Virus record (IMG/VR): IMGVR_UViG_2718218304_000001
Span: 50,160 to 114,159 of that record
Direction: 5' to 3' (one strand)
From: a virus
Lineage: Duplodnaviria > Heunggongvirae > Uroviricota > Caudoviricetes
Length of the DNA: 64,000 nt
Below the pieces are notes generated by a model, which was not told where the DNA came from, searched no databases, and worked only from the letters and a program-made list of their open reading frames with translations. Numbering within the stretch: the first letter of the stretch is position 1; each line of letters begins with the position of its first letter. The position numbers and the translations under genes were made by a program. Positions 49,992 through 50,590 of this stretch are shown in pieces.

Positions 49992-50213
49992 ATGCAATCT
50001 ATTAACTTCCGTACCGCACGCAGCAATCTTACCGAAGTGCTCAACAATGTTGAAGCCGGAGAAGAGGTTGAAATCACCCGTAGAGGCCGTGAGCCAGCTG
50101 TAATTGTCAGCAAGGCCACTTTCGAAGCCTACAAAAAAGCGGCGCTGGATGCTGAATTCGCATCCCTGTTTGACACTCTGGACACCACCAATAAGAAACT
50201 GGTTAACCGATAA
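49992..50213 (+). CDS. phd: Phd antitoxin (prevents-host-death)
   Basis: [49 protein letters not shown]...: near-identical to P1 Phd as I recall it; track ORF starts at GTG 49986. Confidence 0.9.
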
Positions 50214-50590
50214 TGAGGCATATATCACCGGAAGAGCTTATTGCAATTCATGATGCGAATATAAGCCGCTACGGCGGCCTGCCAGGCATGCCAGATTCGG
50301 GAAGAGCTGAGGCTATTATCGGGAGAGTCCAGGCCAGAGTTGCATATGAAGAGATTACCGACCTTTTCGAAGTCTCCGCAACTTACCTGGTGGCTACTGC
50401 GAGAGGGCATATATTCAATGATGCCAATAAGCGTACCGCGCTAAACAGTGCGTTGTTATTTCTGCGCCGTAACGGTGTGCAGGTATATGATTCACCAGAA
50501 CTGGCAGAGCTTACTGTGGGGGCTGCGACCGGAGAGGTATCCGTATCTACTGTCGTTGCCACGTTACGTAGATTGTATGGTACGGCGTAG
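50213..50590 (+). CDS. doc: Doc toxin (death-on-curing, Fic fold)
   Basis: [22 protein letters not shown]...[13 protein letters not shown]: Fic-type motif and near-identity to P1 Doc from memory; TAATG overlap with phd. Confidence 0.9.

Follow-up and report, generated by a model that had tools for sequence, protein, structure and literature searches.

The 64,000-nucleotide stretch of viral DNA analysed here (the whole of which is referred to below as the window) contains, together with insertion sequence (IS) remnants and fimbrial genes, two short genes resembling the phd/doc addiction pair of phage P1. This raises the questions of whether these genes form a genuine P1-type module, how such a module came to lie in this element, and what it might contribute there. 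We conclude, with a probability of about 85%, that the window holds an intact, selectively maintained phd-doc allele of the P1 type II toxin-antitoxin system, located in a 7.5-kb block of an SSU5-like E. coli phage-plasmid. The features on which this conclusion is based are listed in Table 1.

Table 1. Features of the phd-doc locus and of the accessory block containing it (positions in the window).
Feature	Position	Strand	Basis and details
Accessory block	43261..50748	.	7488 bp; largest stretch without an SSU5 counterpart (blastn against SSU5 and other loci)
ISx fragment (IS3 family), orfA end	43288..43725	-	438 bp; 96% identity with the intact NZ_CP019053 copy
IS1-type terminal fragment, 32 bp	43726..43757	.	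91-94% match, 24-55 bp outside chromosomal IS1 transposase genes
IS2-related IS3-family element, 5'-truncated, right end intact	~43864..44856	+	orfB at 43977..44843
yehD-type chaperone-usher fimbrial operon	44985..49807	+	Major subunit, chaperone, usher and adhesin-like subunit; ORFs, Pfam Fimbrial domains and RefSeq annotation of near-identical plasmids; GC down to 31%
Intrinsic-terminator-like hairpin	49835..49869	+	11-bp stem and T-run; terminator scan; 3' of the fimbrial operon
phd/doc control region	49932..49991	+	Alignment with the annotated Pphd of P1
-35-like TGGAGT	49932-49937	+	17-nt spacer to the -10 box
-10 TATAAT	49955-49960	+	Aligned with P1 Pphd
phd-doc-pdcA' segment	49955-50673	+	Homology to P1
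Left palindromic site TGCGTACACA	49961-49970		Operator candidate
Right palindromic site TGAGTACACG	49974-49983		Operator candidate
Shine-Dalgarno GAGG	49983-49986		5 nt 5' of the phd ATG
phd, antitoxin gene	49992..50213	+	73 aa; identity to P1 Phd, PF02604, TIGR01552
doc, toxin gene	50213..50590	+	125 aa; identity to P1 Doc, PF02661, TIGR01550 DOC_P1
Truncated pdcA remnant	50577..50690	+	32 codons of P1 PdcA (66 aa), then 5 codons from the IS end
ISx fragment, other end, 51 bp	50674..50724	-	98% identical to NZ_CP019053 locus positions 2501-2553

The phd and doc ORFs are both intact, with no frameshift and no internal stop codon. They form a bicistronic operon in which the antitoxin gene comes first and translation appears to be coupled: the phd stop codon (TAA, 50211-50213) and the doc start codon (ATG, 50213-50215) have one base in common, giving the TAATG overlap reported in the original prediction. 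In BLASTP comparisons with the P1 proteins (NC_005856), Phd was identical to its counterpart at 69 of 73 positions (95%, over all 73 residues, E 5e-51) and Doc at 115 of 125 (92%, E 7e-87). The P1-type identity put forward in that prediction was thus confirmed, with identities that are high rather than low and lie well outside anything expected by chance, but its description of the proteins as almost identical to those of P1 was slightly generous, given a DNA identity of 91.2% and dS values of 0.25-0.37. Pfam assigned Phd to PhdYeFM_antitox (PF02604, E 6e-13) and Doc to Fic (PF02661, E 5e-9), and NCBIfam identified phd_fam (TIGR01552; 45.8 bits, cut-off 20.8) and DOC_P1 (TIGR01550; 124.5 bits, cut-off 38.65), respectively. 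The closest solved structures in the PDB were those of the P1 proteins themselves, for both Doc (3K33, 3DD7 and 3KH2) and Phd (3HRY, 3K33 and 4ZM0). The Fic motif of Doc, the loss of which would have spoken against this identity, is intact: residues 66-74 read HIFNDANKR, as in P1, and conform to the pattern HxFx(D/N)(A/G)N(K/G)R. Family, motif and gene-order criteria all place the pair in the P1-type Phd/Doc type II toxin-antitoxin group.

The substitutions relative to P1 fall at four positions in Phd (G11S, S14T, S65T and E69K) and 10 in Doc (L12I, S27P, P29S, F92Y, D99E, I109V, S113T, A115V, D116A and S124T). In addition, Doc lacks the final residue of the P1 protein, E126, the GAG codon having been replaced by TAG. 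The hot-spot residues F56 and L70 of Phd, defined in the Salmonella homologue (PMC9207808), have been kept. The dN/dS ratio with respect to P1, calculated by the Nei-Gojobori method, was 0.10 for both phd (dS 0.245) and doc (dS 0.371). Judging from these substitution rates, phd-doc has diverged while under purifying selection and is neither freshly copied from P1 nor decaying; the DNA identity of 91.2% and the dS values of 0.25 for phd and 0.37 for doc argue for a separate allele rather than a recent P1 copy.

The -10 box, the two palindromic sites, the Shine-Dalgarno sequence and the stop/start overlap have all been retained relative to P1. The palindromes at 49961-49983 are the putative Phd operator sites, identified by comparison with the promoter annotated in the P1 record. 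The left site, TGCGTACACA, differs from the perfect P1 palindrome TGTGTACACA by a single substitution (T to C), which breaks its symmetry, and the spacer has two substitutions with respect to P1. The -35 region is not homologous to that of P1, with TGGAGT matching the consensus at 3 of 6 positions and the TGGTGC of P1 at 2 of 6. A promoter scan called no promoter at the position aligned with P1 Pphd, but this result says little, because the weak -35 of P1 itself would fail the same rule. The fimbrial operon is separated from the module by the terminator, and phd/doc is therefore most likely a transcription unit of its own. A long imperfect hairpin (49865-49928; 26-nt arms, 81% complementary, with a 12-nt loop) lies between this terminator and the phd promoter, and is also kept in the chromosomal copies described below. 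RNA folding of 49825-49960, which includes the terminator and this second hairpin, yielded a z-score of -6.9, and an Rfam search of 43000-51500 with E values of up to 0.1 gave no match.

The integrity of the genes also bears on the idea that the pair is a decaying, non-functional remnant brought along with the fimbrial operon. The truncation of the adjoining pdcA, the abundance of IS debris in the block and the missing P1 -35 region would all fit such decay, but the ORFs are full length, the catalytic motif is intact, dN/dS is 0.10, the operator and Shine-Dalgarno sequence are conserved, and the protein sequences are the same in plasmid and chromosomal copies. We consider decay to be extremely improbable and, by analogy with P1, Phd and Doc would very probably be a working pair here.

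DNA homology to P1 is limited to 717 bases of the window (49955-50671, corresponding to P1 88009-88725), over which identity is 91.2%. It begins exactly at the -10 hexamer of Pphd, spans the operator and both genes, and stops 95 nt into pdcA, the remnant of which is labelled 'PdcA protein, incomplete' in RefSeq. The sequence upstream of the -10 box is unrelated to P1. The window as a whole is not P1-like: only these 717 bases match P1, and the remainder is collinear with SSU5.

This collinearity with the Salmonella phage-plasmid SSU5 runs from 80139 to 21991, in reverse orientation and in a single order, with 41.7 of the 64 kb of the window aligning at 70-91% identity (blastn). The phage and replication genes are collinear with those of SSU5, in keeping with an SSU5-like (pHCM2-family) phage-plasmid as the host element, and E. 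coli plasmids of about 106-117 kb, typed as IncFIB and non-mobilizable, match the window at 98-99% identity. RepA, ParA and ParB are encoded by the SSU5 backbone itself. The accessory block is inserted between a homologue of SSU5_042 (42384..43196, minus strand) and the DNA primase gene (50724..51935, minus strand), and its fimbrial part has a GC content of 31-45%, versus about 50% in the backbone. The same site is occupied by the unrelated gene SSU5_041 in SSU5, by IS5, a sulfatase and its maturase in pYLPI6a, and by a RecQ-family helicase and DprA in pLAO18. It is nearly empty in the E. coli plasmid CP088502, in which 233 bp separate the backbone flanks; relative to this plasmid, the foreign stretch extends from 43298 to 50711. 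The SSU5-type primase/helicase region was found in 692 plasmid records, with an identity to the window of 95% or more over that region in 41 of them, whereas the phd/doc-primase junction was present in only 21. A backbone origin for phd/doc within the SSU5-like lineage can be ruled out, as SSU5 and the empty-site plasmid both lack the pair, which is found in only 21 of the 692 records. The plasmid NZ_CP040928.1 was rejected as an annotated stand-in for the window: it is identical around phd/doc, but has an unrelated multiresistance region upstream.

The proposal of an accessory mosaic block at 43.2-50.6 kb holds as regards its mosaic, non-SSU5 nature, but the right end lies at about 50.72-50.75 kb, not at 50.6 kb. 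The position of phd/doc at the edge of the insertion, as originally described, also requires qualification: the pair is tied to the insertion, but lies inside the cargo and is not a gene beside it. It belongs to the insertion, and its linkage to the fimbrial operon recurs in chromosomal tRNA-Phe islands.

Two other regions of the window deserve mention. The SSU5_042 homologue is a single 270-aa ORF in the window (42384-43196, minus strand), and is annotated as two ORFs in some near-identical plasmids, namely NZ_CP139126 (2385-2633 and 2634-3197 of the extracted locus) and CP088502; the gene adjoining the cargo site is thus disrupted in some members of the lineage. After the accessory block, the longest stretch lacking an SSU5 counterpart (35418-38968) contains an HTH-type ORF (35882..36268) and a tyrosine-integrase-like ORF (36263..37366, minus strand) with a weak match to an NCBIfam integrase domain. 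Four tRNA genes (Ser, Thr, Tyr and Asn) are clustered at 38391-39044 on the minus strand, where tRNA-Asn alone is annotated in SSU5.

The accessory block is a succession of pieces of different origins. At its left, an end of an IS3-family element (hereafter ISx), matching positions 3294-3737 of the NZ_CP019053 locus, has its terminal inverted-repeat tip (43725) facing the cargo and forms an inverted repeat with 50674-50711. It is followed by the 32-bp IS1 end, for which the loci compared were those of strains SC516 and HeN100 and which is also found in pYLPI6a. Between this IS1 end and the start of the IS2-like homology lies a 106-bp AT-rich stretch (43758-43863) for which no match was obtained in any locus compared. 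The orfB of the IS2-like element scored 569.6 bits with the NCBIfam model 'IS2 transposase TnpB' and matched Pfam rve/HTH_21, and its match to the full-length chromosomal copy of SC516 begins 250 nt into the CDS of that copy. The fimbrial operon then precedes the phd-doc-pdcA' segment, and a second, 51-bp ISx end closes the block, its tip at 50674 abutting the cut pdcA and again facing the cargo; this IS end had about 2000 matches among plasmids.

The last, adhesin-like gene of the fimbrial operon (48767-49807) is allelic. The full-length allele of the window is 99.9% identical to the chromosomal copy in NZ_CP159141; in several SSU5-like plasmids, the match to the gene does not start until about base 568 of the query (about 49367 in the window), and it is the N-terminal part (first third to two-thirds) that differs among these plasmids. 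In the near-identical plasmid pP59A-2, no CDS is annotated for this gene.

The two ISx pieces are oriented alike, and together they lack 740 bp of the element. The left joint between ISx and the backbone falls within a 10-bp microhomology, GAAGCCAGGC (43288-43297), described as being of the GAGCCAGGC type, and the right joint falls within an 11-bp microhomology, TAATACTGGTT (50712-50722); both GAAGCCAGGC and TAATACTGGTT are common to the intact IS and the empty-site plasmid. The junctions with the backbone are therefore microhomologies rather than IS ends. As both joints lie in sequences common to the IS and the empty site, they point to microhomology-mediated joining rather than transposition. 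No target duplication was found, the cargo ends ATA... and ...TTA giving no 3-bp duplication. A composite transposon can be ruled out on the grounds that there are no complete IS copies (only the 438-bp and 51-bp fragments), the tips face inward and there is no target duplication. Given the common orientation and the missing 740 bp, the insert looks like either a circle of ISx plus cargo opened inside the IS, or two flanking copies that have lost their outer parts. The same two ISx fragments are present in pLAO18 (NZ_OP242248; 2800-2903 and 9239-9288 of the extracted locus), around a different, 6.3-kb cargo (RecQ-family helicase and DprA). The ISx-bounded locus may be a reusable site of cargo exchange.

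Counterparts of the cargo were found in E. coli chromosomes. An island carrying a tyrosine integrase houses the fimbrial operon, phd, doc and a truncated pdcA in both SC516 (NZ_CP025048) and HeN100 (NZ_CP044443). It sits beside a tRNA-Phe gene and next to dicD-dsbD-cutA-dcuA-aspA, the pheU position of K-12, and the segment is 0.5-3.5 kb from the island integrase. The chromosomal segments (SC516, HeN100 and NZ_CP159141) are 95-100% identical to the window over 43864/44859-50673: SC516, in which the IS2-like element is complete, matches 43864-50673 at 95.8%, and HeN100 matches 44859-50673. Phd is identical in the window, SC516 and HeN100; the Doc of SC516 is the same as that of the window, and the Doc of HeN100 has two different residues (WP_001603498.1, WP_053291281.1). 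The chromosomal copies have about 27 more bases of pdcA than the window, in which the ISx tip cuts the gene at 50673/50674. They then continue into other IS fragments and the tyrosine integrase, whereas the window continues into the ISx end and the primase gene. The plasmid copy is probably the derived one, because the chromosomal copies keep these 27 or so additional bases; the longer remnant is the one observation that points from chromosome to plasmid. The upstream breakpoint between the P1-type cassette and the fimbrial operon is the same in chromosomes and plasmid, which argues that the two were fused before their arrival in the phage-plasmid.

In a plausible history, E. coli tRNA-Phe islands would already have held phd-doc-pdcA' joined to a yehD-type fimbrial operon. 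The fused segment would then have entered the phage-plasmid with the opposite ends of a single IS3-family element on its two sides, and would have been joined to the backbone at the 10-11-bp microhomologies. A bolder version, which we judge rather unlikely when taken as a whole, would have a piece of a tRNA-Phe island (adhesin operon plus addiction module) captured at a reusable docking site formed by two inward-facing ISx ends, this site acting as a locus for cassette exchange through which chromosomal traits would become transmissible by infection, and would add that the P1-type Phd lets SSU5-like and P1-like elements cancel their mutual addiction.

The window allele was detected, at a threshold of at least 99% identity, in 82 of 20,395 E. 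coli records, and was observed exclusively together with the yehD-type fimbrial operon, either on SSU5-like plasmids or in chromosomes. The P1-type allele (90-95% identical) was present in 1164 of these 20,395 records, with two or three copies in some genomes.

The module would be expected to work as it does in P1, in which Doc phosphorylates EF-Tu at Thr-382, regulation shows conditional cooperativity and Phd is ClpXP-labile (PMC4803016, PMC3920265, PMC9207808). As far as can be judged by alignment with P1, every sequence feature needed by such a mechanism is present. Phd dimers would bind the two palindromic sites overlapping and following the -10 box, repressing the operon, and Doc would act as a co-repressor by bridging Phd dimers, with excess Doc relieving repression according to the Doc:Phd ratio. 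Doc, a kinase with a Fic fold, would halt translation by acting on EF-Tu, unless blocked by the disordered C-terminus of Phd (residues 52-73), which would fold onto it. Since Phd is a ClpXP substrate, loss of the genes would free Doc: Phd would be exhausted and the stable toxin would arrest growth. The predicted outcome is the post-segregational arrest of cells losing the element, in the case of the phage-plasmid, and a penalty on deletion of the segment in that of the chromosomal islands. Toxicity, its neutralisation, promoter activity and the stabilising effect are all expected from homology to P1.

The role in plasmid maintenance, likewise suggested by P1, is open to more doubt than the working of the pair. 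A measurable contribution of the module to maintenance of the replicon seems somewhat better than an even chance, a lower estimate because RepA and Par functions are already supplied by the backbone and most relatives are without the module. The module is dispensable for the backbone, and its contribution could be small, as 692 records hold the backbone and only 21 the block. It is possible, but on balance doubtful, that the module mainly protects the linked fimbrial segment or island from deletion and is a passenger with little effect on the replicon, a view compatible with our main reading. In its favour, chromosomes, in which loss of a plasmid plays no part, also retain the fim-phd-doc-pdcA' linkage, the SSU5 backbone itself supplies RepA, ParA and ParB, and most SSU5-like plasmids are devoid of phd/doc; nevertheless, the linkage could reflect a single capture event, and a working post-segregational killer on a plasmid stabilises the whole replicon, so that the two roles are inseparable by sequence.

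A different kind of benefit would arise if the Phd of the window neutralised P1 Doc, as an anti-addiction factor, so that cells with the SSU5-like element could survive losing a co-resident P1-like plasmid, and the reverse, thereby affecting competition between SSU5-like and P1-like phage-plasmids. The Doc-binding C-terminus of Phd differs from that of P1 only at S65T and E69K, with the hot-spot residues kept, and the P1-type allele is very common, as the counts given above indicate. Such cross-talk would nonetheless be a side effect rather than the reason for the presence of the module, and is an unlikely explanation for it.

The tRNA-Phe island is a defence-gene-rich region. In HeN100 (2647-6589 of the extracted locus), it carries RADAR rdrB and a dptF fragment, with IS1 and IS3 elements lying between these genes and the segment, and in SC516 it carries DEAD/DEAH and UvrD-type helicases and a DUF262 protein. 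Type II toxin-antitoxin systems have often been proposed to act in defence (reviews PMC4803016, PMC10532202), and the presence of rdrB and dptF in the HeN100 island bearing the block would be in keeping with a pair serving chiefly for abortive infection, or for defence of the host of the phage-plasmid against phages. However, no evidence specific to Phd/Doc was found for such a role, and the defence genes of HeN100 are set off from the block by IS elements and missing from the window, making this explanation very unlikely.

The phd/doc pair itself is already known, is textbook biology and holds no surprise for the specialist; RefSeq already annotates the exact proteins (WP_001603498.1, WP_053291281.1), and the same accessions appear in dozens of records. 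In the SSU5 group, the variable genes listed by Pfeifer et al. (2021) include toxin-antitoxin systems as well as PapC/PapD pilus genes (PMC7969092), and a literature search for a fimbrial/phd-doc block on SSU5-like plasmids found no specific description. The added value is modest and lies in the context, that of a module welded to a fimbrial operon and travelling between chromosomal islands and a phage-plasmid. Useful by-products are the exact map of the mosaic, its chromosomal counterpart, and the odd inward-facing IS ends common to a plasmid with other cargo. Together, they provide a concrete, checkable case of a phage-plasmid gaining chromosomal traits along with a device discouraging their loss.

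The closest known system is phd-doc of P1 (NC_005856, 88046-88647), which has the same gene order, one-base overlap and Fic motif, and shares with the window the -10 box, two candidate operator palindromes, Shine-Dalgarno sequence and start of pdcA 3' of doc. It differs in that pdcA is cut after 32 codons in the window, and in that the host element of the window allele is an SSU5-like phage-plasmid, not a P1-like one. The P1-like phage-plasmids P7, D6, RCS47 and SJ46 carry the same cassette, 90-92% identical to that of the window; their copies and those of conjugative plasmids cluster with the allele of P1, unlike the window allele. The mobility of the cassette is already known, since the P1 genome record notes its presence on an unrelated conjugative plasmid, that of EcoDXXI hsd. 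The phd-doc systems of Salmonella Typhimurium and of the Vibrio superintegrons belong to the same family and are probably much more distant in sequence. The chromosomal Salmonella pair and the Vibrio cassettes have the same EF-Tu kinase mechanism (PMC9207808) and, going by works cited in PMC3920265, are instances of phd-doc stabilising, or riding on, DNA other than plasmids.
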